A DNA stretch of 64,000 bases from Escherichia phage naam: sequence record MN850630.1; one strand, given 5' to 3'. Position numbers and translations under genes: made by a program. Of this stretch, positions 5,881-49,959 are shown in pieces; positions within the stretch are counted from its first letter, which is position 1; every line of letters begins with the position of its first letter. Under the pieces are notes generated by a model. That model made no database searches, was not told the origin of the DNA, and saw only the letters and a program-made list of their open reading frames with translations.

Positions 5881-7250
5881 TGGAAAAAGGGCAGTATGAT
5901 GTAGGCACAGATGCTGCCCTCGTTGCAATCATGAGCGGTGAGAATGTCTTCGTTTCAGGACCCGCAGGTTGTGGGAAGACGTACCTCATCAACATGATCC
6001 AGTCAATGTATGGAGACTCTTGCATAACGGTTGCCCCGACAGGGGTAGCCGCTTTAAACGTTAATGGAGCAACAGCACACCGAACCTTCGATCTTGCAGC
6101 AGGTGTGAGCATGGAGTCGGACTGGACCGCAATAAGGGCAAAAACAGCAAAGCCTTTGAAAAGCAAGGCATTTACCATCCTAATTATCGATGAAATCTCT
6201 ATGATCCGTGCTGATAAGTTTATAGAGATGGATAGGAAACTCCGCTTCCTTCGAAAAAATGACAAACCTTTCGGGGGCATACAGGTCATATTGTTTGGCG
6301 ATTTTTACCAGGCACCTCCTGTTGTCTCTTCTATGGAGAAGGAAGCCTACTTCAACTTCTACCATACGGACCTGTGTTGCTATACCGAATCTTGGAAAGA
6401 GCTTGACCTCCACAACATAGCCCTAATAGATCAGTTCCGACAGGAGTCTATTCGATTTGCTACAATGCTCAACTGTGTTCGTGAGGGTCGTCGCATAAAA
6501 GAGGTTGTAGCAGAACTTAATGCTCGCTGTTACAAAGGAGGTGTACCAACAGACGCTCTCACAATTTGCGCCACCAACAAACAAGCAGAGGAAGTGAACA
6601 GAAGGTTCTATGATGCCATCAACGCCCCAGAGAAGGTATACACTGGTGAAATGAAGGGTAAGTTTCCCTCCACCCTGCCAGTTGAGCAGGAGATGAAGTT
6701 GAAAATTGGCATGAAAGTTATGATAACCGCCAACGATGTTGACCCGACGCACAAAGTACCTTATTATGTTAACGGAACACGTGCCACAATTGTTAAATTT
6801 AAGAACAAGGCGGTGGTGGTAGAGCTTGAAGATGGAACACAGGTTGACATAGAGCAGAGGTTGTGGGAGAATAACGAGTATAAGCCATCTCAGAGATACA
6901 ACATTGCAGAAAGGAAGATGGAGAAGTTTATAGAGAGGGTAGTGATTGGGTCATACAAGCAACTTCCTCTGAAATCTGGGTACGCCGTAACATCTCATAA
7001 AAGTCAAGGACTTACACTAGATTGTTACAACCTAGACCTTGGAAAGAACGGAGCTTTCTCTCCTGGGATGACGTATGTCGCTTTGAGTAGAGTTAAGACA
7101 ATACAAGGGATAAACTTGTTGCGTCCACTAAGAGAAGTTGACATTATTGTTGACCCGCGAGTCGTAGAGTTTTACAATACAACATTCCCTGACTTAGACA
7201 AAATTGTCAGGAAAGATTTTGAAACCAGAGCCGAAGAGGGGGACGTATGA
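5880..7250 (+). CDS. SF1 DNA helicase (Dda/PIF1/RecD-like)
   Basis: Walker A VSGPAGCGKTYL, Walker B LIIDEISMI, ILFGDFYQAPPV, C-terminal SHKSQGLTLD and YVALSRVK motifs. Confidence 0.8.
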   Translation: MEKGQYDVGTDAALVAIMSGENVFVSGPAGCGKTYLINMIQSMYGDSCITVAPTGVAALNVNGATAHRTFDLAAGVSMESDWTAIRAKTAKPLKSKAFTILIIDEISMIRADKFIEMDRKLRFLRKNDKPFGGIQVILFGDFYQAPPVVSSMEKEAYFNFYHTDLCCYTESWKELDLHNIALIDQFRQESIRFATMLNCVREGRRIKEVVAELNARCYKGGVPTDALTICATNKQAEEVNRRFYDAINAPEKVYTGEMKGKFPSTLPVEQEMKLKIGMKVMITANDVDPTHKVPYYVNGTRATIVKFKNKAVVVELEDGTQVDIEQRLWENNEYKPSQRYNIAERKMEKFIERVVIGSYKQLPLKSGYAVTSHKSQGLTLDCYNLDLGKNGAFSPGMTYVALSRVKTIQGINLLRPLREVDIIVDPRVVEFYNTTFPDLDKIVRKDFETRAEEGDV

Positions 7251-7588
7251 GTTTGTGGAGAAATATAGTTAACTACGTGTGTGGCAATCCAACTCCTGAA
7301 GAGAAGGATGTTTTGATTCACGATTTTACTAAAAGATCCCGTGAAAAAGATCTACTGTTAACAAAGGTGACTGATAAAGACCCTGCAGTAGGGGACTGGG
7401 CAGGTTTTGCGTTTACATCGGACAAATACACCTTTAACAAAGGTGACTACCTTGTTGTGGATTTTAACGAAGACATCGAGGGTGCTGAACCTTACTATCA
7501 GACCCTTATTGTTGCAGGGTGTGTTAATCTATCTTCAGGCATGCACAGTTTGATTCTTTTTGAGCTTGACTCTGAAGACCTTGAGTAG
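7247..7588 (+). CDS. hypothetical protein
   Basis: ATGA start/stop overlap with the helicase gene; 113 aa. Confidence 0.55.
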   Translation: MSLWRNIVNYVCGNPTPEEKDVLIHDFTKRSREKDLLLTKVTDKDPAVGDWAGFAFTSDKYTFNKGDYLVVDFNEDIEGAEPYYQTLIVAGCVNLSSGMHSLILFELDSEDLE

Positions 7589-7649
7589 TAAGATGTGAGT
7601 ATAAAGGGGAGGCCTCCTCCCCACAAAAAACTAAGGAGAGCACCAAACG

Positions 7650-8975
7650 ATGAGCAAAACCAAATTAGAACTTACCTGGATAGGTAAAAACGAGCGCAAA
7701 AAGTTAGAGCCGCACATTTTATTAGAAGATTCTAGCAAGTCTTACCGCAGCCAGAAAGTGACCGAAAACGATATTTTTGATAATAAACTGATTTTTGGAG
7801 ATAACTTATTAGCATTGAAGGCGCTAGAGCAAGAGTATGCAGGCAAAGTGAAGTGTGTTTACATAGACCCGCCATTCAATACCGGGAGGGCTTTTGAGCA
7901 CTACGATGATAGCCTGGAGCATTCCATTTGGCTGGGCTTAATGAGGGATAGGTTAGAAATAATTCGTAATCTTCTAAGTGATGATGGGGTAATATTCGTT
8001 CACTTAGATGATTGCGAAATGGCGTATTTAAAAGTTTTGATGGACGAGATTTTTGGTCGTGCAAATCAGTTAAATACCATATCGATGACCACAAATTCCC
8101 CTTCGGGATTTAAGGCAACAGGAGCCACAGTTTTCTCCACAGCAAACTTTTTGCTTGTATATGCAAAAGATCGCACCCAGAAACCGCTTAACAAAATCTA
8201 TATACCTAAAGGGTACGATACAGGATATAACAAATACCTATTAAACCCGGATGACCATTATAAAAATTGGACGTGGTGCAGTATTGCCGATGCGTTTGCA
8301 AAGGCCAATGGCTATAAGGATGCAAAAGAAGCCAAGAAAAAACTACCTGACACATTCGATGATGAATTAGCACAATTCGCAATTGATAATGCAGAACGTG
8401 TATTTCAATCTGTTGCAATTGGTGGTGGTGCTAAAATAAAGAGAAAAGAAACTATCGAGAAGTCAAAGAAAGATAGGGATAAGGTTTATGTACATCCAAA
8501 TGAGGATGTTGAAGGATTTTATATCGCAAATGGTAGGCAAATGGTCTTTTACTCCAATAGACTTTTGGAAATTGACGGTGAGATGCAACCTGCGGAACTA
8601 ATAACTGATGTTTGGACTGATATTAGTTGGAATGGAATAGCAAATGAAGGCGGCGTCAGTTTCAAAAATGGGAAAAAACCAGAAGCGCTTTTGAAGCGGA
8701 TTTTAGAAATGTGTACGCGAGAAGGCGATTTGGTATTGGATTCATTCGGTGGTTCGGGAACTACTGCTGCTGTAGCTCACAAGATGAAAAGACGTTGGAT
8801 CTCAATCGAGCTAGGTGATCATTGTCATACCCATATTATTCCGCGCTTGGAAAAAGTGATCGATGGCGAAGATCAAGGCGGTATTTCTAAGTCTGTAAAC
8901 TGGAAAGGTGGTGGTGGCTTCCGTTATTACAAACTTACCCCGACCTTAATTGCGAAAGATAAGTCTGATCAATAA
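7650..8975 (+). CDS. DNA amino-methyltransferase (N6-adenine or N4-cytosine, beta class)
   Basis: Motif IV DPPF (IDPPFNTG) near the N-terminus and motif I FGGSGTTAAVA near the C-terminus; AAGGAG RBS; 441 aa. Confidence 0.8.
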   Translation: MSKTKLELTWIGKNERKKLEPHILLEDSSKSYRSQKVTENDIFDNKLIFGDNLLALKALEQEYAGKVKCVYIDPPFNTGRAFEHYDDSLEHSIWLGLMRDRLEIIRNLLSDDGVIFVHLDDCEMAYLKVLMDEIFGRANQLNTISMTTNSPSGFKATGATVFSTANFLLVYAKDRTQKPLNKIYIPKGYDTGYNKYLLNPDDHYKNWTWCSIADAFAKANGYKDAKEAKKKLPDTFDDELAQFAIDNAERVFQSVAIGGGAKIKRKETIEKSKKDRDKVYVHPNEDVEGFYIANGRQMVFYSNRLLEIDGEMQPAELITDVWTDISWNGIANEGGVSFKNGKKPEALLKRILEMCTREGDLVLDSFGGSGTTAAVAHKMKRRWISIELGDHCHTHIIPRLEKVIDGEDQGGISKSVNWKGGGGFRYYKLTPTLIAKDKSDQ

Positions 8976-8988
8976 AGAGTACAATCAA

Positions 8989-9294
8989 ATGATGAAACGT
9001 TATAAACCATACACTTTTGAAATCGATTTCGAACTTGACGATATGTTCACTGTGGAAGCTCAGGCAGTTGTCCAGTTGCCAGACCCAGCGTGCCGTGATT
9101 CTGATGTTGACTATTATGGATTTAGACAAATTACCGATGTGCATGTTTACCACAACGGTGAAGAGGTGGACTTCCACAAACTGCCAAACGATATGCGCCA
9201 CTCAATTTACAAACGTGCAGCCCGTGAACTAGAGTCCTATCTTGATGCAGCGACGACAGCAGCTGCATTTGCCGAAGAAGTGGGAGGTTTCTGA
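8989..9294 (+). CDS. hypothetical protein
   Basis: Track ORF 8950..9294; first ATG clear of the upstream methyltransferase gene is at 8989. Confidence 0.5.
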   Translation: MMKRYKPYTFEIDFELDDMFTVEAQAVVQLPDPACRDSDVDYYGFRQITDVHVYHNGEEVDFHKLPNDMRHSIYKRAARELESYLDAATTAAAFAEEVGGF

Positions 9295-9689
9295 TGATTA
9301 CAGGTGTGAAGATTATCCAATACCACTTAACCAAGTTGGAAGATGCTGAGAAAGAGCTTGCAGAAGTTCTGAACAGTGGATATACTTTGCTATCATGCGC
9401 CTGTTCAGACACCTACGCTGTGTGGACACTTATCCGGAAGGAAGAGCCTGCAGGGATCTTGGTGCCAAACCCTAAGATTATTAGTGAGGTGGATGACTAC
9501 CCCCAAGACGGCCTGCCAGAAGGCTGGGAAGTATGGGAAGGTGGTGAAAACCCTGCACCAGGTAAGTGGGTAAAATACAAACTACGTAGTGGTGCACAGT
9601 ACGCTGACTACTCTGATGACCTAGACTGGAGTCATTCTTCACCAGGATCGTCTGCAAGTTCATATGATATCGTTGCTTTTCAGGAATAA
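9294..9689 (+). CDS. hypothetical protein
   Basis: Coupled start (TGATG) with GGGAGG RBS; 131 aa. Confidence 0.55.
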   Translation: MITGVKIIQYHLTKLEDAEKELAEVLNSGYTLLSCACSDTYAVWTLIRKEEPAGILVPNPKIISEVDDYPQDGLPEGWEVWEGGENPAPGKWVKYKLRSGAQYADYSDDLDWSHSSPGSSASSYDIVAFQE

Positions 9690-9701
9690 GGAGAGAGTAC
9701 T

Positions 9702-10184
9702 ATGTCAGATTTTATGTGGAAAGTAGGCTATGCCACTCCTGAAATGTGCGAGGCTTGCTTTGTGAAAATAGGCCGCGAGGATATCGACAAAGTGATCCTT
9801 AAGTTTCGTGATGTGGCTGTGATCGGCAACCGGGTGCTTAAGCACTTAAAGAATCTGAAGCTCACTAAAAAGAAGTTCTTCGGACTTTTCGAAGAGAAAG
9901 TTGATGCTTGGACCCATTGCATTCAGGAAGCTAAATCTCACTACAGTGCTATCGTTACTCCAGAACGGGTAGCTAAGATGGAAGGATTCATCAACAGCAC
10001 AGAATTTGAGTGTCTGAAAGCTGCACTTGATAGTTATCCGAAATGCCTCAAGCACTTGGACAAGTATGCAGAAAAGGATGGGGAAATGTATCTAACCCTG
10101 GACGCATATTATGAGATGCAAGAAATTTTAAATTTAGATTTGACATTGGTATCCACCGAGTACACAATAGGTATCCGGGTTTAA
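9702..10184 (+). CDS. hypothetical protein
   Basis: AAGGAG RBS; 160 aa; followed by a terminator. Confidence 0.6.
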   Translation: MSDFMWKVGYATPEMCEACFVKIGREDIDKVILKFRDVAVIGNRVLKHLKNLKLTKKKFFGLFEEKVDAWTHCIQEAKSHYSAIVTPERVAKMEGFINSTEFECLKAALDSYPKCLKHLDKYAEKDGEMYLTLDAYYEMQEILNLDLTLVSTEYTIGIRV

Positions 10185-10190
10185 CACTAG

Positions 10191-10219
10191 GCCCTGCCCG
10201 AAAGGGTGGGGCTTTTTGC
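10191..10219 (+). terminator. rho-independent terminator (hand-located)
   Basis: Stem gccctgccc / gggtggggc with gaaa loop then TTTTT; same hairpin recurs at about 20.33 kb. Confidence 0.7.
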
Positions 10220-10235
10220 ATTAGGAGACAGCAAA

Positions 10236-11000
10236 TTGAAATTTATCTACAAAGAACACTACCATAAAGGTGTTGTGTGGAGTCTATTTGACGGGTCTGG
10301 TGGTGCAGTCATTGACTGGGCAAAAGCTGGGTACCTGTGCCTGTGCTTTAATGCAGAAGGCGCTGATCACGGCAGTTATGCAGAGGTGATCACCGATCAT
10401 CCCAACATTCACTATGTGGACTATTGGATTGACCCGTGGTTCCCTCAGGAAACTTTTTGCATGTATCCGGCTCCAGACTTTATTCTTGCATTTCCTCCGT
10501 GCACGCATTTAGCGGTATCAGGTGCTGCACATTTTAAGAAAAAGCTGGCTAAGGACCCCATGATCCAAATTAATGCTGTAAAGGATGCTCGGGTTGCGGA
10601 AGAGCTGGGAGAGATTTACGATTGCCCGTGGCATGTAGAGAATCCTGTGGGTGTTATGTCCACACTGTGGCGCAAACCTGATTACCGTTTTCACCCTTCG
10701 GATTATGGCGGGTATTTACCGGAAGATGATGTAAACCCATGGTTTCCTGAATTTATAGCTCCACGTGATGCCTATCCAAAAATAACTTGCGGCTGGATAG
10801 GTAATGGATTTATAATCCCAGCCACAAAACCTGTCCCGCAAATAGTTGACGCGGTTAGCGGGTATTCCATGCAACACGCCAAGCTGGGTGGAAAGAGTGC
10901 AAGAACGAAGATGATTCGAAGCCTCACACCACGTGGCTGGGCAAAAGCCGTATTCCTAGCAAACGAGCCTGTAGTAAGGAGCAGAATTAATGGGAAGTAA
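10236..11000 (+). CDS. compact DNA (cytosine-5)-methyltransferase-like protein
   Basis: Motif I SLFDGSGG, motif IV AFPPCTH (PCQ-like, catalytic Cys), motif VI HVENP (ENV-like). The track start 10206 lies inside the terminator stem, so a TTG at 10236 after AGGAGA is preferred. Confidence 0.5.
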   Translation: MKFIYKEHYHKGVVWSLFDGSGGAVIDWAKAGYLCLCFNAEGADHGSYAEVITDHPNIHYVDYWIDPWFPQETFCMYPAPDFILAFPPCTHLAVSGAAHFKKKLAKDPMIQINAVKDARVAEELGEIYDCPWHVENPVGVMSTLWRKPDYRFHPSDYGGYLPEDDVNPWFPEFIAPRDAYPKITCGWIGNGFIIPATKPVPQIVDAVSGYSMQHAKLGGKSARTKMIRSLTPRGWAKAVFLANEPVVRSRINGK

Positions 11001-13068
11001 ATTTATGGCATCTGCATACAACCGTTTCGGTGAGCCAAACCCGAAAGCAACTAAGTATAAAAGTGGGGGAAGTGTGAAACGAGACTATCGTGATGAAAAA
11101 GAAGTTGAAACTGTAGAGACTGTTTTAGAAAATACTAAAATTGTCCCTGTCCCACAACAAAATATCGGTCTGATGGCTGCACAATATTTTGGTGTGCGAT
11201 CAGCATTGTCACAAGAAGACGGTGTGACAGTCACTGCAACATATTTCCCATATTACGACCGCTACGGAAATCTGTCCGGTTTCAAAAAGCGTGACTGGAC
11301 TATTCCTAAAGAACAAAGGGGCCACTTCTCCGTTGTTGGCATCGTAAAGGCCAACTCCCAGATGTTTGGTCAAAAGCTGTGTGCATCTTCCAACAACCGT
11401 AAGCAGATTAACGTTTGTGAGGGAGAAGGTGATGTTATTGCAGCATGGCAGGCTGCATATCAGATACAAGTAAAAGGGATTCTCACCAACGCTAAAGCCC
11501 CGGCAAAGGTGAAGCAGTGGGCTAAAGAGGTCCAGGACGGGATCGACGCAGTTATCAACGGTGGTGATCTGGCAGGAAAACCCTGCCTGCCTTTTGTTGG
11601 AATTAACTGTGGATGTGCAAACGCAGTAGATACTTTTGCAAACAATGAGAAGTTTATCCGTAGCTATGGAACAGTTGTGCTGGCAATGGATAACGATGCA
11701 GCTAACGAGGTAGAGAAGCAAAAACACGTCATTAAAGGTGTCGAGGCCACGCACAATATCGCAGCATTTTTGATGGCTGATAACGTTTACCACGTAGAAT
11801 ACCCTGGTGAAGTAAACGACCCTGACGGTGTAAAAGATATCCGAGACATGCTGAAGGCTAAAAAGCTGGAAGATATTGTCAACATGTTCCGGCATCCTGT
11901 TAAATATGTGCCTGATGCTGTGTCGGATTTAGAAGACTTCTCTATCGAGTCTTTGCGGAAAAAGACTTCCAACGGGGTAGATATCAGCGCAGAGTTCCCA
12001 AAACTGCAAAAAATGCTAAAAGGCTTGCACAAAGGTACACTCGTAATGCTTACAGGCCCATCAGGTGGCGGTAAAACAACCGTAGCTAAAAAACTGGAAC
12101 ACTGTATTGCAAGATACCTAATGGACCCGACATGCCCGAAGGCTGATGACTATGAAGAGGATGATCGTCTATGTATGATCCATCTTGAGGAGGACCCAGA
12201 GGAAGCAATTAACTCCTTGTATGCAAACCAGTTAGGGTTTGATGTTAAAGAGTTTGTTGAAGATCCTAGCCAGTTTTTAACTGATCAAGAACACGCAGAG
12301 ATTCATCAGTCATGGGCAAAAGCTGGAAAAATCAAAGTGTTCAAACATTTCGGGTCTATTCCGGTGGATGAGTTGATTACCAAGCTTAAGCAAATGGTTT
12401 GCCTGTACCATTGCCGTTATATTGTGCTGGATCACCTGTCCATGGTAATTTCAGGGCTTAATGTTAAGGATGAGCGAAAAGAACTGGACATGGCTATGAC
12501 CCAACTGGCTGCGTTTTGTAAGCAGTTTAATGTGTTTATCTTGGTGATCGCTCACCTCAAACGTACAGAGATTGTGCCTCCTAAGGACAAGGATGGTAAC
12601 CCGTTACCTTTCTGGTATCCTGTGCGAAAAGAGAATTTGCGAGGATCGGCGGGGCTTGAACAGTTGAGTTGGGTAGTCATAGGTGTCGAGGCCGAAGAAA
12701 TGGTGGATCGTTCTCGTGGGCGTGTCCGTCTGGTAGGTCTTAAAAACCGTCCAGCAAAAACTTTAGGTATTGCTGACACTTTAGTTATGGACCCGCACAC
12801 AGGTAAGTTCCATGATGCCAGTAACTGGTACTGGGACAAAGAAATGCAAATGTTTACAGACGGAGAAGGTGGGGAGGTTGTTTGGAGACCTCAGGCTATG
12901 TTTGAGGATCAGGAGCATGCAGTTGTAGAAACACCTATGGGCAAGGTTGTGGCTGATAAGGTTGTAACTCCTACTGTTAAGCCTGTTGACACGCAGGAAG
13001 ACCTCCAGTACGATGATCCGTCCTCTGACCATGTTCCTGGTTTTGAGGATGATGAAACACCTTTTTAA
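10990..13068 (+). CDS. DNA primase-helicase (TOPRIM primase fused to DnaB/gp4-like helicase)
   Basis: TOPRIM motifs VCEGEGDVIAAW and LAMDNDAAN; helicase Walker A LTGPSGGGKTT; 692 aa. Confidence 0.85.
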   Translation: MGSKFMASAYNRFGEPNPKATKYKSGGSVKRDYRDEKEVETVETVLENTKIVPVPQQNIGLMAAQYFGVRSALSQEDGVTVTATYFPYYDRYGNLSGFKKRDWTIPKEQRGHFSVVGIVKANSQMFGQKLCASSNNRKQINVCEGEGDVIAAWQAAYQIQVKGILTNAKAPAKVKQWAKEVQDGIDAVINGGDLAGKPCLPFVGINCGCANAVDTFANNEKFIRSYGTVVLAMDNDAANEVEKQKHVIKGVEATHNIAAFLMADNVYHVEYPGEVNDPDGVKDIRDMLKAKKLEDIVNMFRHPVKYVPDAVSDLEDFSIESLRKKTSNGVDISAEFPKLQKMLKGLHKGTLVMLTGPSGGGKTTVAKKLEHCIARYLMDPTCPKADDYEEDDRLCMIHLEEDPEEAINSLYANQLGFDVKEFVEDPSQFLTDQEHAEIHQSWAKAGKIKVFKHFGSIPVDELITKLKQMVCLYHCRYIVLDHLSMVISGLNVKDERKELDMAMTQLAAFCKQFNVFILVIAHLKRTEIVPPKDKDGNPLPFWYPVRKENLRGSAGLEQLSWVVIGVEAEEMVDRSRGRVRLVGLKNRPAKTLGIADTLVMDPHTGKFHDASNWYWDKEMQMFTDGEGGEVVWRPQAMFEDQEHAVVETPMGKVVADKVVTPTVKPVDTQEDLQYDDPSSDHVPGFEDDETPF

Positions 13069-35260: not shown

Positions 35261-35878
35261 GTCTGCTCTTCCCCCTACCATAAACGGCCCTACCTGGCAA
35301 GTGGAATAATTGACGAGCCATCAATCCTACACACTGTACAAACATACATGTAAAATAGCTATTGCATAACCTTTCATTGTGTGGTAGCGGTGCTATTTTT
35401 TACCAGTTTTCCTTCCAAAATTGCACGTAATGCCGCTATTGCACAAATTTTAACCTGATGCACATCTCCAATATCTTGTCAACAACTAAAAATCTTTATA
35501 AGTCATACACTTACACAGCATCGAAAGCGTGTTCTACGCGAAAAATCGAGTATAACTATAGCCGCCAGATCTCAGAATTCACGTACGCACGCCATTCTAT
35601 AGCCTGCAAAGTATTTATTCCAACCACAGAATAACGGAATAGTCAATACCTGCATAAAATAATTATTAGTGTAAACTGCATAACATAAATCAGCTCAGGT
35701 GTCAACATTTTTCGTAAACAGTCCGAAATTATCACGATGAGTTATCATAAACAGAGAAATCTTTAGTCGTCTAATGTTTACTGTACATTACTATACTGAC
35801 TGGAATCATTAGATGACTAAGAGAAAGATAAGAAATAATTAATAATGTAATTGTTTTACCTGTAACAATAAGGCAACT

Positions 35879-35898
35879 ATGCAAACGAATGGCATGGC
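35879..35898 (+). repeat. 20-bp direct repeat ATGCAAACGAATGGCATGGC, copy 1
   Basis: Exact second copy at 36140..36159. Confidence 0.7.
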
Positions 35899-36015
35899 GC
35901 GACGGAGTCGCGACATAATATAAAAGCAGTAACCATCACCCCCGTGATAGTTTGTCTGCAATCTATTAATCAGATCATAGTTGCCTTGTATTCAGTTAAT
36001 CATGACATGATAAGC

Positions 36016-36047
36016 AAGGCAACTATAGATCTTCTAATAGTTGCCCT
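36016..36047. repeat. palindromic site GGCAACTAT-N10-ATAGTTGCC
   Basis: Further copies of the arm at about 35870 (AAGGCAACTAT) and 35977 (ATAGTTGCCTT); operator-like or iteron-like. Confidence 0.55.
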
Positions 36048-36170
36048 GCTTTTATATTATGTCATAGAAACACCCGAAGGGGTGACCAAAGGTCACCTGG
36101 CATAGCCAGTGAAAGATTATTAACTTGCTAATAGTTATCATGCAAACGAATGGCATGGCTGATTATCGGT

Positions 36171-36257
36171 GTGTAAACAGTCAATCATGTAAATGGTTAG
36201 CATGTGAACAATCAGAAATGTAAACAATCCAGTGTGTAAACTAATAGGTGTGTAAAA
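36171..36257 (+). repeat. cluster of (G)TGTAAAC(A) repeats
   Basis: GTGTAAACAG, ATGTAAACAA, TGTGTAAAC and GTGTAAAAG within 90 bp; further GTAAACAG at about 35714, 36511 and 37221, and on the minus strand at about 36368. Confidence 0.55.
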
Positions 36258-36851
36258 GTGTCATGTTGTGTCAGTTAGGTCACATTATGTCAGACAAGTT
36301 TTTCTCCTCTTTGTCAAGTGCTGCATGAAAAATTTACAAGCTTGTATGGTAGCATTTTTGCGGCCCTGTTTACATTCAGTGTTGTATGTATAATCCTTGT
36401 TGTGTGGGCGTTTAGACGTCTGGACGGTCAGAAGTCTGCAGGTTAATATCTAATCTATCGGCTGCTAACTATATCCCACACAAATAGTAAGAAATATAAT
36501 TGTTATGTGCGTAAACAGTAACCCATGTTATCAATCCCTGTATGTATCGCCAGTGGTGCGCATAATGGGTATTATGTTAAATTGCCCGTAATGATAACAG
36601 TTCTCACAATGATAGGTATTCTCATTCACCCCCACAAGATAGGTTGCAAATGTTGTGCCACTGTGTGAACGGCCTGGCCTATTAATTTGCCTCACTGCCT
36701 TGATATTTGAGAATTATTATAAGAATGAGAAGTATTCCCATTTCGTCCGCCTGGCAGCACTCCTGTAGGTCAGGTCAAAATCGTGGTAGAACTAGACCTA
36801 TCCGGATATTTCTGGCTGACTCTTCAGGTCTGTGTGGGAAAAGCCAACCTC

Positions 36852-36866
36852 TCCGGCGGGGCAGGG
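36852..36866 (+). repeat. 15-bp GC-rich direct repeat TCC(C)GGCGGGGCAGGG, copy 1
   Basis: Second copy at 36999..37015; CTCTTCAGG recurs at about 36820, 36904 and 37351. Confidence 0.5.
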
Positions 36867-37710
36867 GGAGGTCAATTAAAAAATTTACGTGGTGTATGAA
36901 GCGCTCTTCAGGTAAGGCAGGTATTATGGGATGAAACCCGCTTCAGGCAATGATATTTGTGGGTGTGATATTTGCTGGAAGGCCAGATATGACGGGACTC
37001 CCGGCGGGGCAGGGGTAGTACAGACAGGGAAAATATGGGGATGTAGTTGGGGAAATTGATCAGACAGGTAGAGTATGGAATATGTTACAGGTATGTTAAA
37101 TATGGAGGTTGAATATCTGTAGGATTTGTGTGTAAAATCAAAGACTTAAGGGGTGTTGTGGTATTTTCTATAAATAATTCAAGTTTAATAGGCAATATTT
37201 GTCTCTATCCGCTTTGTGTGGTAAACAGATTCAGATGAGATTGGTTTACAAGTGTATACATAATATACAAATTAAAGATACAAGAAACCCCCCTCCCCCT
37301 TCGGCTACCATTCACCTTTTCCTCTGACTGGTACTTAAACACTTATTCAGACTCTTCAGGTTATCACCCATATATCATATGGCAGTGACTGGTGTCCTCC
37401 GGCCCCTCTTTCGTCACCCGTCCGCTTCGCCATGCTAATGCCATAGCTAATGGTTCGGTTGTTCACCCTGTTCACTCAGGTGTATCTCTATACCCCTTCA
37501 AACCGAAGAGAACAGAAAACCCGAATTACTCGGTAAAAGAAAAGAGAAGAACTTAATTTTATCAGGATAGGCAAGAATGTCAAGGCATGACTGCTCACTA
37601 AACAAGCAAACAGTCATGTGTGGGAGGTAAGTGATTGTGGTGGTAGGAAATTTAGTTGAAAGATGTGTTATAGGTGCTTCCAGCACTTTAGCCGGGCAGC
37701 TAATTGTGTG

Positions 37711-49144: not shown

Positions 49145-49429
49145 CTACCAGGTCACTGTCAAGTAGGCAACTGTGTTATTTTTCTCCGGAGAGATGCCAA
49201 CAACATCCACCTGCAGACCTCCTGCCCTCAAATCCCCAACAATGTGTGGGAAGTAGTCTGAGAGGTGTGATGGGAGATTTATCGAAAATCCACATCCCAG
49301 AAAGCCTGCTAACGCTTTATTTTGTATCTCCCCAACAATCGCATCATAAATAGAGTTAAGCTCGTCAGGAAGCGTTACAGGACGTTTTAGCGCTAACTGG
49401 TGCAACTTGTCCTTAGCACTCATTTTCAT
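49145..49429 (-). CDS. hypothetical protein
   Basis: ATG at 49429 overlaps the methyltransferase stop (ATGA); track ORF 49145..49498. Confidence 0.5.
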   Translation of the reverse strand: MKMSAKDKLHQLALKRPVTLPDELNSIYDAIVGEIQNKALAGFLGCGFSINLPSHLSDYFPHIVGDLRAGGLQVDVVGISPEKNNTVAYLTVTW

Positions 49430-49959
49430 TTCAAGTCTGCCTCTGGTGGTGCCAACCACATAAATGGCGGCAAGTCTAGACGGTTTTTCTTGTCCCATAC
49501 AAAATATGCATATGCCTGCCCATCCGTTCTACCATTAGATTGGAATGACGGACGCTTAGATATTGTGATCACAGTGGTAGGTGCATTATCAAGCCACCAT
49601 TCAAATCTGGCCTTGCTTTCCAGAAAATTAAGACGCAAAAGCATAATAACTACGTCGGCATCTTTCAACGCCTTGTCCACAAACTCACGAGCCAGGCTGT
49701 ACGGCGGGTTGGTGATAATACAGTCAACATGGTTGTATTCTGTATTCAGATAGTCAACACCTTCTTGGATTTCTCCCCATGCAGATCCTAACGGCATACG
49801 GGAGTAGAACACACCTGAGGCACTATTCCTGCAAGGCTCTAAGTAGGTCCAGTCTTCTGGGAACGGAATAAGGTAATACAGCCCTTCTGCACACCACTCC
49901 GGTGTCACATACTCATCGTAGGCGTTACGTTGTTCATCAGGTTTTCTAGCACAAGTCAT
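49426..49959 (-). CDS. phage Dam-like DNA N6-adenine methyltransferase (small)
   Basis: Motif IV IITNPPYSL and upstream EYVTPEW; 177 aa. Confidence 0.7.
   Translation of the reverse strand: MTCARKPDEQRNAYDEYVTPEWCAEGLYYLIPFPEDWTYLEPCRNSASGVFYSRMPLGSAWGEIQEGVDYLNTEYNHVDCIITNPPYSLAREFVDKALKDADVVIMLLRLNFLESKARFEWWLDNAPTTVITISKRPSFQSNGRTDGQAYAYFVWDKKNRLDLPPFMWLAPPEADLK

Follow-up and report, generated by a model that had tools for sequence, protein, structure and literature searches.

Three orphan DNA methyltransferases of an rV5-like coliphage, among them a compact candidate C5-cytosine methyltransferase

The DNA cytosine methyltransferases M.HhaI and M.HaeIII (PF00145) are built on a common fold, in which motifs I (FxGxG), IV (PC) and VI (ENx) follow one another in this order, and in M.HhaI a stretch of 100-130 residues, corresponding to the target-recognition domain (TRD) or small domain, separates motifs VIII and X. 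DNMT3A and DNMT3B, which are active enzymes, carry PCN at motif IV, and the motif I of DNMT3A, FDGIATG, is likewise non-canonical. A different chemistry is carried out by CmoX of Synechococcus phage S-B43 (PDB 8yf3), a DNA cytosine C5-carboxymethyltransferase (PMC12783734). Here we analyse a stretch of 64,000 nucleotides (nt) from Escherichia phage naam (sequence record MN850630.1; hereafter the window), which encodes a compact protein of 254 amino acids (aa) resembling the C5-cytosine methyltransferases (10236..11000, plus strand, TTG start), together with a 441-aa beta-class amino-methyltransferase (7650..8975, plus strand, ATG start) and a 177-aa N6-adenine methyltransferase with an NPPY motif (49426..49959, minus strand). 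These are stand-alone (orphan) enzymes of three different classes with no partner nucleases, and the explanation that we favour, with moderate confidence, is that all three mark phage DNA, the compact one as a minimal C5-cytosine methyltransferase.

By nucleotide identity the source of the window is a Vequintavirus, an rV5-like lytic coliphage: positions 7000-12000 match many genomes of Escherichia Vequintavirus (rV5-like myoviruses) from end to end at 98.3-98.8% identity, including that of the BASEL phage Bas51 (Escherichia phage WalterGehring, MZ501111; 98.7% DNA identity). A preliminary description of the window had named three methyltransferase genes and quoted their motifs, and these were recovered at the given places when the open reading frames (ORFs) and motifs were rechecked; the interval in which it placed the genes, 7650-11000, holds two of them, while the third lies at 49426-49959. 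Since each of the three ORFs matches a PHROG methyltransferase family (E 1e-64 to 1e-87) and all three genes are kept in about 118 Vequintavirus genomes, they are not chance ORFs. All three already carry methyltransferase annotations in more than 100 public genomes that are nearly identical to the window, and for one of them there is an experimental characterisation. In Bas51, bas51_0070 and bas51_0176 are labelled 'putative N6 adenine methyltransferase' and bas51_0074 'Dcm-like C5 cytosine methyltransferase'; the three genes show no difference of substance between Bas51 and the window, which thus represents a further isolate.

Fold and motifs of the compact protein

When a high-confidence AlphaFold model of the 254-aa protein was compared with known structures, only C5-cytosine methyltransferases came out on top of both fold searches, with DNMT3A/B as the best matches, and enzymes of this type ranked above all other Rossmann methyltransferases in the two programs. 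The model thus has a predicted class I S-adenosylmethionine (SAM) methyltransferase fold with the topology of the C5 enzymes. Its similarity to the DNMT3A/DNMT3B catalytic domain (PDB 5yx2, 6u8p and others) amounts to 12-15% identity with a template-modelling (TM) score of about 0.5, and the phage protein is some 30 residues shorter than that domain and lacks the regulatory domains. FDGSGG (residues 18-23, nt 10287-10304) aligns with motif I of DNMT3A and HhaI; FPPCT (residues 86-90, nt 10491-10505) places C89 opposite C81 of HhaI and the PC of DNMT3A; and ENP (residues 135-137, nt 10638-10646), which follows a beta strand, aligns with the ENV of DNMT3A. Both the fold and the order of motifs I, IV and VI are therefore held in common with M.HhaI and M.HaeIII, and the covalent Cys-C6 route of these enzymes is presumed to be the same in the phage protein.

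By sequence, the 254-aa protein matches the PHROG family phrog_757, 'DNA methyltransferase', with E 3e-87. Comparisons with the PDB by phmmer and hmmsearch gave hits at E values of only 0.05-1, those to DNMT3B and HaeIII over motifs I-IV having E 0.2-1. Three relatives with 56% identity to the protein (P0072, P0071 and P0055) do reach PF00145, with 24.7-28.5 bits against a cutoff of 22, again over motifs I-IV. Finally, alignment of the family profile with the DNMT3A catalytic domain by hhalign extended from SLFDG through PC(N/T)DL, covering motifs I-IV, at E 1.3e-5 and a probability of 81%; the equivalent alignment with HhaI was insignificant (E 0.13).

A number of results weigh against the identification of this protein as a C5-cytosine methyltransferase. 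Neither Pfam (including PF00145 at E values up to 1) nor NCBIfam gave a match to the 254-aa protein. A profile of the wider family, built from 112 sequences, retrieved no C5-methyltransferase from the PDB by sequence, and PF00145 is reached at E <0.01 by 1 of 112 family representatives. The QxRxR of motif VIII is absent, the corresponding segment reading R177-D-A-Y-P-K182-I-T184, and no GN(A/S)V of motif X is recognisable; in these respects, and in its sub-threshold score, the protein differs from the PF00145 enzymes. When the whole and C-terminal profiles were aligned with HhaI and DNMT3A by hhalign, in both local and global mode, the C-terminal half showed no significant similarity beyond ENV/ENP. 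Our literature search yielded neither a report of 5-methylcytosine or another modified cytosine in Vequintavirus nor, for the compact family, a biochemical study or a measurement of cytosine modification; the nanopore study of Bas51 called N6-methyladenine (6mA) only (PMC12548924).

The C-terminal half has some short likenesses that can be picked out by eye and that have no statistical support: LWxGN resembles the FWGN of DNMT3, PRGW resembles the GRSW of DNMT3, and RSLTPRG resembles the motif IX sequence RxLTPRE.

The same half of the protein bears out the earlier remark that little room is left for a TRD. About 40 residues (190-232), of which some 20 are variable, lie between the last core strand (residues ~184-189) and the C-terminal helix (233-251), as compared with the 100-130 residues found between motifs VIII and X of M.HhaI, and near the C-terminus there is a conserved R228-S-L-T-P-R233-G-W segment. 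The compact protein would thus keep the SAM-binding Rossmann core, the catalytic Cys89 and the motif VI Glu135, with the TRD cut down to about 40 residues. If it works by the standard route, Cys89 would attack C6 of the cytosine with the assistance of Glu135, and the methyl group of SAM would be passed to C5, giving 5-methylcytosine. Target recognition would have to take place through short loops, the recognised motif probably being short and relatively infrequent, and oligomeric action is conceivable given the DNMT3-like compactness of the protein.

A near-absent TRD might also be explained if the enzyme acted on RNA, methylating tRNA in the manner of DNMT2, or on single-stranded DNA replication intermediates. 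We regard this as improbable, because the DNA enzymes DNMT3A/B, CmoX, 3g7u, HhaI and HaeIII all outrank DNMT2 in the fold searches and because DNMT3 illustrates that a small TRD is compatible with the methylation of double-stranded DNA. In addition, the window has no tRNA genes, and the compact gene is found in DNA-replication and nin-region contexts, in many phages beside DNA adenine methyltransferase genes.

Conservation and likely activity of the compact family

The compact protein belongs to a large family, which comprises 3,555 clusters at 90% identity (E <=1e-3) and 1,025 representatives at 50% identity, nearly all of them 210-260 aa long, and for which the NCBI name is 'DNA cytosine methyltransferase'. 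By tblastn, members were found in 1,505 of 50,697 phage records (~3%). The phages that carry them include Vequintavirus, Seunavirus, Phapecoctavirus-like and Krischvirus myoviruses, Dhillonvirus, T1-like Escherichia and Klebsiella siphoviruses, and lambdoid prophages; within Vequintavirus the gene is present in essentially all genomes.

Residue conservation was counted in 112 divergent representatives of the family (50% identity). The catalytic Cys (C89) is kept in 105 of them, E135 in 109, N136 in 103 and P137 in 110, and two further segments, Y180-x-K182-x-T184-x-x-W187 and R228-S-x-T-P-R-G-F, are nearly invariant. The preliminary description had singled out the Thr that follows the catalytic Cys, where Gln is usual, as an oddity. 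This view does not hold, as PCT is the norm of the family, being present in 118 of 120 close homologues, with T90 kept in 97 of the 112 representatives; moreover, DNMT3A/B are active with PCN, and the position next to the catalytic Cys therefore does not point to another chemistry. Motif I is more variable, reading FDGSE or FNGSD in proteins with 80% identity and FD(Y/R/H)TG in the wider family. A comparison of the 254-aa gene with a 98%-identical orthologue gave 0.008 nonsynonymous substitutions per site (dN) and 0.325 synonymous ones (dS), and the resulting dN/dS of 0.026 implies strong purifying selection on the compact gene.

These figures bear on whether the protein works as a methyltransferase at all. 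The fold could have been retained in a protein that serves as a SAM- or DNA-binding decoy, in regulation or as an anti-defence factor, and this would be in keeping with the lack of a Pfam or NCBIfam match, the degenerate motif I of the relatives, the Asn found at motif II where the wider family has Asp, and the absence of the canonical Arg pair of motif VIII. Nevertheless, a decoy would have no need of the Cys and the ENP Glu, which are kept in 94-97% of the divergent representatives, nor of a dN/dS as low as the one observed, and the motif I of DNMT3A is similarly non-canonical in an active enzyme. We therefore hold a role of this kind to be highly improbable.

The genomic contexts of the family were compared by clustering the ORFs of 80 IMG/VR loci, with contexts counted in 77 of them. 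There are at least five neighbourhoods, including a position before the primase/helicase and polymerase genes (Vequintavirus), one between two Dam-like NPPY genes and NinG (lambdoid prophages), one before the terminase genes (T1-like phages) and one beside SNF2-type helicases. Dam-like methyltransferases, NinG, HNH endonucleases and SNF2 or primase helicases recur as neighbours, a Dam-like gene lying within 5 kb in 28 of 77 loci, and no specificity or partner subunit common to all contexts was found among the clustered loci. As there is no shared partner gene, the compact enzyme appears to be an orphan that works by itself and is encoded in the replication or early-gene region.

The neighbourhoods also help to judge whether the enzyme might add a group other than methyl, as the preliminary description had suggested when it offered a different base modification as an option. 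Such a group could be the carboxymethyl of 5-carboxymethylcytosine, drawn from host carboxy-SAM as by CmoX, or a handle for hypermodification, and E. coli does supply carboxy-SAM. CmoX itself, however, is about 100 residues longer than the phage protein and has SPPC at motif IV together with Arg350, at the position of Asn304 in HhaI, which binds the carboxymethyl group, whereas the compact family has FPPC, with F86 in 98 of the 112 representatives. An Arg at this position is in any case not diagnostic of carboxymethylation, as DNMT3A, which uses ordinary SAM, has one there (GRSW). CmoX is usually encoded beside CmoA and an amide ligase; the 254-aa gene has no such neighbours, and genes for CmoA, a CmoY-type ligase, TET or a glycosyltransferase are neither annotated in Bas51 nor recurrent beside family members. 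With nothing found that favours it, and with unmodified DNA in a phage that encodes a homologue (see below), we consider the addition of a non-methyl group to be highly improbable.

Two Krischvirus phages provide an indirect view of what the family does. The genomes of phages SAP and TB34 are 99.96% identical, and a 2026 paper describes SAP DNA as fully cytosine-modified, carrying 5-hydroxymethyldeoxycytidine (5-hmdC) and its glucosylated forms, and TB34 DNA as having no modified nucleoside detectable by high-performance liquid chromatography-mass spectrometry (PMC13390438). Both phages encode a compact C5-type family member (SAP, OZ034687, 40624-41337; TB34, OX001802, 40541-41254), and therefore the compact enzyme alone offers no explanation of their difference. 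The TB34 protein is 98% identical to the family representative P0057, which in turn is 56% identical to the 254-aa protein, and the combination of a homologue with unmodified DNA suggests that the target motif is infrequent. An equally good reading is that the family leaves virion DNA entirely unmodified, and this counts among the points that speak against the interpretation given here.

We also considered the compact enzyme as a global, non-specific cytosine modifier. This was rejected, given the lack of detectable modified nucleosides in TB34 and the isolation host of many rV5-like phages, which according to their records is E. coli K-12 MG1655, an mcrBC-positive strain. Both facts could be accounted for by a rare motif, by a substrate other than virion DNA or by low activity. 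Site avoidance in the window gives no clue to the C5 target, as no C-containing 4-mer stands out (observed/expected ratios are 1.03 for GATC, 0.72 for GTAC and 0.44 for CTAG).

Taken together, the modelled structure and the pattern of conservation suggest that the 254-aa protein is most likely a minimal C5-cytosine methyltransferase of a phage-specific family, making 5-methylcytosine. There is a small chance that the family is unconventional in some respect, acting as an oligomer with short or relaxed specificity, acting on replication intermediates only, adding a non-methyl group or having a tie to DNMT3 ancestry. Among the phages of E. coli and Klebsiella that serve in therapy and in defence-system screens the family is very common, and its product could influence nanopore base-calling and also how sensitive these phages are to type IV restriction, to BREX-like systems and to retrons; a C5 methyltransferase that truly lacks a TRD, if this is what it is, would also be of interest to enzymologists and tool builders.

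Two adenine methyltransferases and the marks on Bas51 DNA

In the case of the 177-aa protein, the motifs are NPPY (residues 84-87) and a motif-I-like EPCRNSASG (residues 41-49), and the protein matches the family phrog_799 (E 8e-66). The established profiles fall short: Pfam Dam (PF05869) gave 19.3 bits, below its cutoff of 28.1, TIGR01712 (phage N6-adenine methyltransferase) gave 16.5 against a threshold of 97, and the EcoRI-methylase model matched weakly and below threshold. The protein is identical at 176 of 177 positions to bas51_0176, the gene for which adjoins that of a ClpP-like protease.

In a study of 2025, Bas51 mutants that escape the retrons Asa1 and Squ1 were selected, the rebuilt mutations D69G, D79G and T83P were found to abolish retron defence, and native nanopore sequencing revealed that the N6-methyladenine (m6A) motif GATC was nearly gone in T83P (PMC12548924). 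D69, D79 and T83, the last lying directly before NPPY, are all present in the 177-aa protein, while the 441-aa protein has C69, G79 and E83 and a fourth methyltransferase of Bas51, bas51_0200, has Q69, A79 and I83. As the residues hit by the escape mutations fit the 177-aa protein alone, it is the orthologue bas51_0176 that is the characterised trigger enzyme. The 177-aa enzyme is thus a writer of GATC m6A, as shown for its 99%-identical orthologue, and works like Dam despite scoring below the phage Dam profile thresholds, in agreement with its earlier description as Dam-like.

The same data point to a second adenine mark. In the source table of that study, wild-type Bas51 has 1405 m6A calls at GATC, 509 at GTAC and 576 at other sites, and the T83P mutant has 35, 511 and 349, respectively (PMC12548924). 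When the 350 GATC and 134 GTAC sites of the 64-kb window are scaled to the 140.7-kb genome, with two adenines per palindrome, these calls correspond to an occupancy of about 90% for both motifs. Since the GTAC calls are unchanged in T83P, the GTAC mark is independent of the 177-aa enzyme. The methyltransferases of E. coli K-12 are Dam, Dcm and EcoKI; the strain is not known to have a GTAC methyltransferase, and the mark is therefore not expected to come from the host.

The 441-aa protein is one of two candidates for the writer of this mark. With DPPF (residues 73-76, nt 7866-7877) lying well before FGGSGTT (residues 366-372, nt 8745-8765), motif IV is ahead of motif I, which is the beta-class order, and the assignment to this class made earlier is upheld by a match to PF01555 (N6_N4_Mtase) at E 4.8e-43 and 148.1 bits, against a cutoff of 26.7. 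It also matches phrog_67 (E 8e-64). In a sequence search of the PDB, the Mod subunits of H. pylori (E 4.7e-29) and EcoP15I (E 2e-24) came ahead of CcrM, MboIIA and the N4-cytosine enzymes. Motif order, DPP(F/Y) and FxGxG are shared with type III Mod proteins and with orphan beta-class N6-adenine enzymes such as CcrM, at E values of 1e-24 to 1e-29; compared with type III Mod subunits, the phage protein is some 200 residues shorter and has no Res. No Res gene was found near the 441-aa gene, which is flanked by a RecD-like helicase gene and small ORFs, or among the annotations of Bas51, implying that the enzyme is an orphan and not part of a type III RM system. The label 'type III RM methylation subunit' found in several GenBank records reflects homology and is misleading as to the existence of a system. 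Judged from its sequence, the 441-aa protein is most likely an active N6-adenine methyltransferase.

The second candidate is bas51_0200, a 272-aa protein of the gamma-like N6-adenine type, with EPSAGRGSF followed by NPPF. It is encoded at MZ501111 124069-124887 on the minus strand, and the equivalent site would lie about 1.4 kb past the right end of the window, so that three is the count for the window only and the complement of the phage is four. Either enzyme may write the GTAC mark, and the 441-aa enzyme may alternatively account for the 'other' m6A sites. Two points speak against assigning GTAC to the 441-aa enzyme: the presence of bas51_0200 makes the assignment ambiguous, and the GTAC signal could be a miscall of the 6mA caller that arises from a modified neighbouring cytosine. 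If the 441-aa enzyme did write GTAC, it would recognise a palindrome, which is not typical of type III Mod proteins. Set beside the gene content, the Bas51 methylome indicates that the phage writes two or more adenine marks and that GATC and GTAC are the work of different enzymes of its own.

What these marks are for can be discussed in more general terms. In the proposed scheme the three orphan methyltransferases would mark the phage's own replicating DNA, and orphan phage methyltransferases are classically read as anti-restriction; the preliminary description took the three together as a heavy investment of this kind. In favour of a broad protection against host RM systems, the degree of GATC and GTAC methylation on Bas51 DNA would block nucleases of the MboI or RsaI type, and GATC sites are about as frequent in the window as expected (observed/expected 1.03). 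Against it, the Vequintavirinae proved 'exceptionally susceptible' when the BASEL collection was exposed to a set of RM systems, apparently without effective protection (PMC8594841), and GATC methylation is costly, as it triggers the retrons Asa1 and Squ1 (PMC12548924). Marks of four bases shield only overlapping sites and also create targets for methylation-dependent nucleases, and the marks could just as well serve replication, packaging, the avoidance of repair or the timing of gene expression. The earlier statement thus goes further than the data allow: we think it unlikely that broad anti-restriction is the chief role of the three enzymes, which can only protect narrowly, against nucleases with recognition sites overlapping GATC, GTAC or the C5 motif, and do not form a general anti-restriction shield.

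Gene layout and other features of the window

The gene order around the 441-aa and 254-aa genes is the same in the window as in Bas51, where a DNA helicase gene is followed by a hypothetical gene, bas51_0070, three hypothetical genes, bas51_0074, and the DNA primase/helicase and DNA polymerase genes. The three hypothetical genes correspond to three small conserved ORFs on the plus strand at 8992..10184, which encode proteins of about 100, 131 and 160 aa of unknown function (phrog_4240, phrog_11995 and phrog_12900), and which travel with the compact enzyme in Vequintavirus-type contexts only, not in other phage groups. The first of them (ORF 8950-9294, plus strand, annotated start ~8992) lies directly 3' of the 441-aa gene and matches, besides phrog_4240, weakly phrog_1573, 'DNA methyltransferase' (E 1.7e-5), perhaps because it represents a small domain that is fused to methyltransferases elsewhere. 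ORFs 7247-7588 and 9294-9689 have weak matches to PHROGs labelled 'DNA ligase'.

Between the 160-aa ORF and the compact gene there is a terminator-like, GC-rich hairpin followed by TTTTT (10189..10214, plus strand), with an 11-pair stem that includes 7 GC pairs. The mechanically defined ORF of the compact gene, of 264 aa, starts at GTG 10206, inside this hairpin, which makes this codon an unlikely true start; TTG 10236 lies 8 nt after AGGAG, and the same 254-aa gene is annotated in Bas51. At its 3' end the gene runs past 10990, where the primase/helicase gene begins, so that the two overlap.

Several core genes of Bas51, among them those for DNA polymerase, anaerobic NTP reductase and terminase, are split by insertions that bear homing endonucleases and are annotated as 'joined' coding sequences. 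Such insertions vary among isolates, and phage EmilHeitz has an extra homing endonuclease in the region homologous to 7000-12000. A set of 16-39 GenBank records (MG065658, MG065661, MG065666, MG065682 and others) are named 'Campylobacter phage', with C. jejuni as the host. Across these genes, their identity to E. coli Vequintavirus genomes is 98-99%, and the stated host seems questionable; contamination with coliphage is perhaps the reason.

Elsewhere in the window, about 2.4 kb at 35300-37700 contain no ORF longer than 82 aa and lie at the change from plus-strand to minus-strand genes; the Bas51 counterpart (93911-96377) is unannotated as well. No tRNA or Rfam family was found in this interval. 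Between about 35863 and 36054 it has repeated ATAGTTGCC(C/T)TG elements in direct and inverted orientation. The 20-nt sequence ATGCAAACGAATGGCATGGC occurs in identical copies at 35879 and 36140, and a perfect 18-nt inverted repeat lies at 35912-35929 and 36046-36063. The interval may be an origin or a regulatory region.

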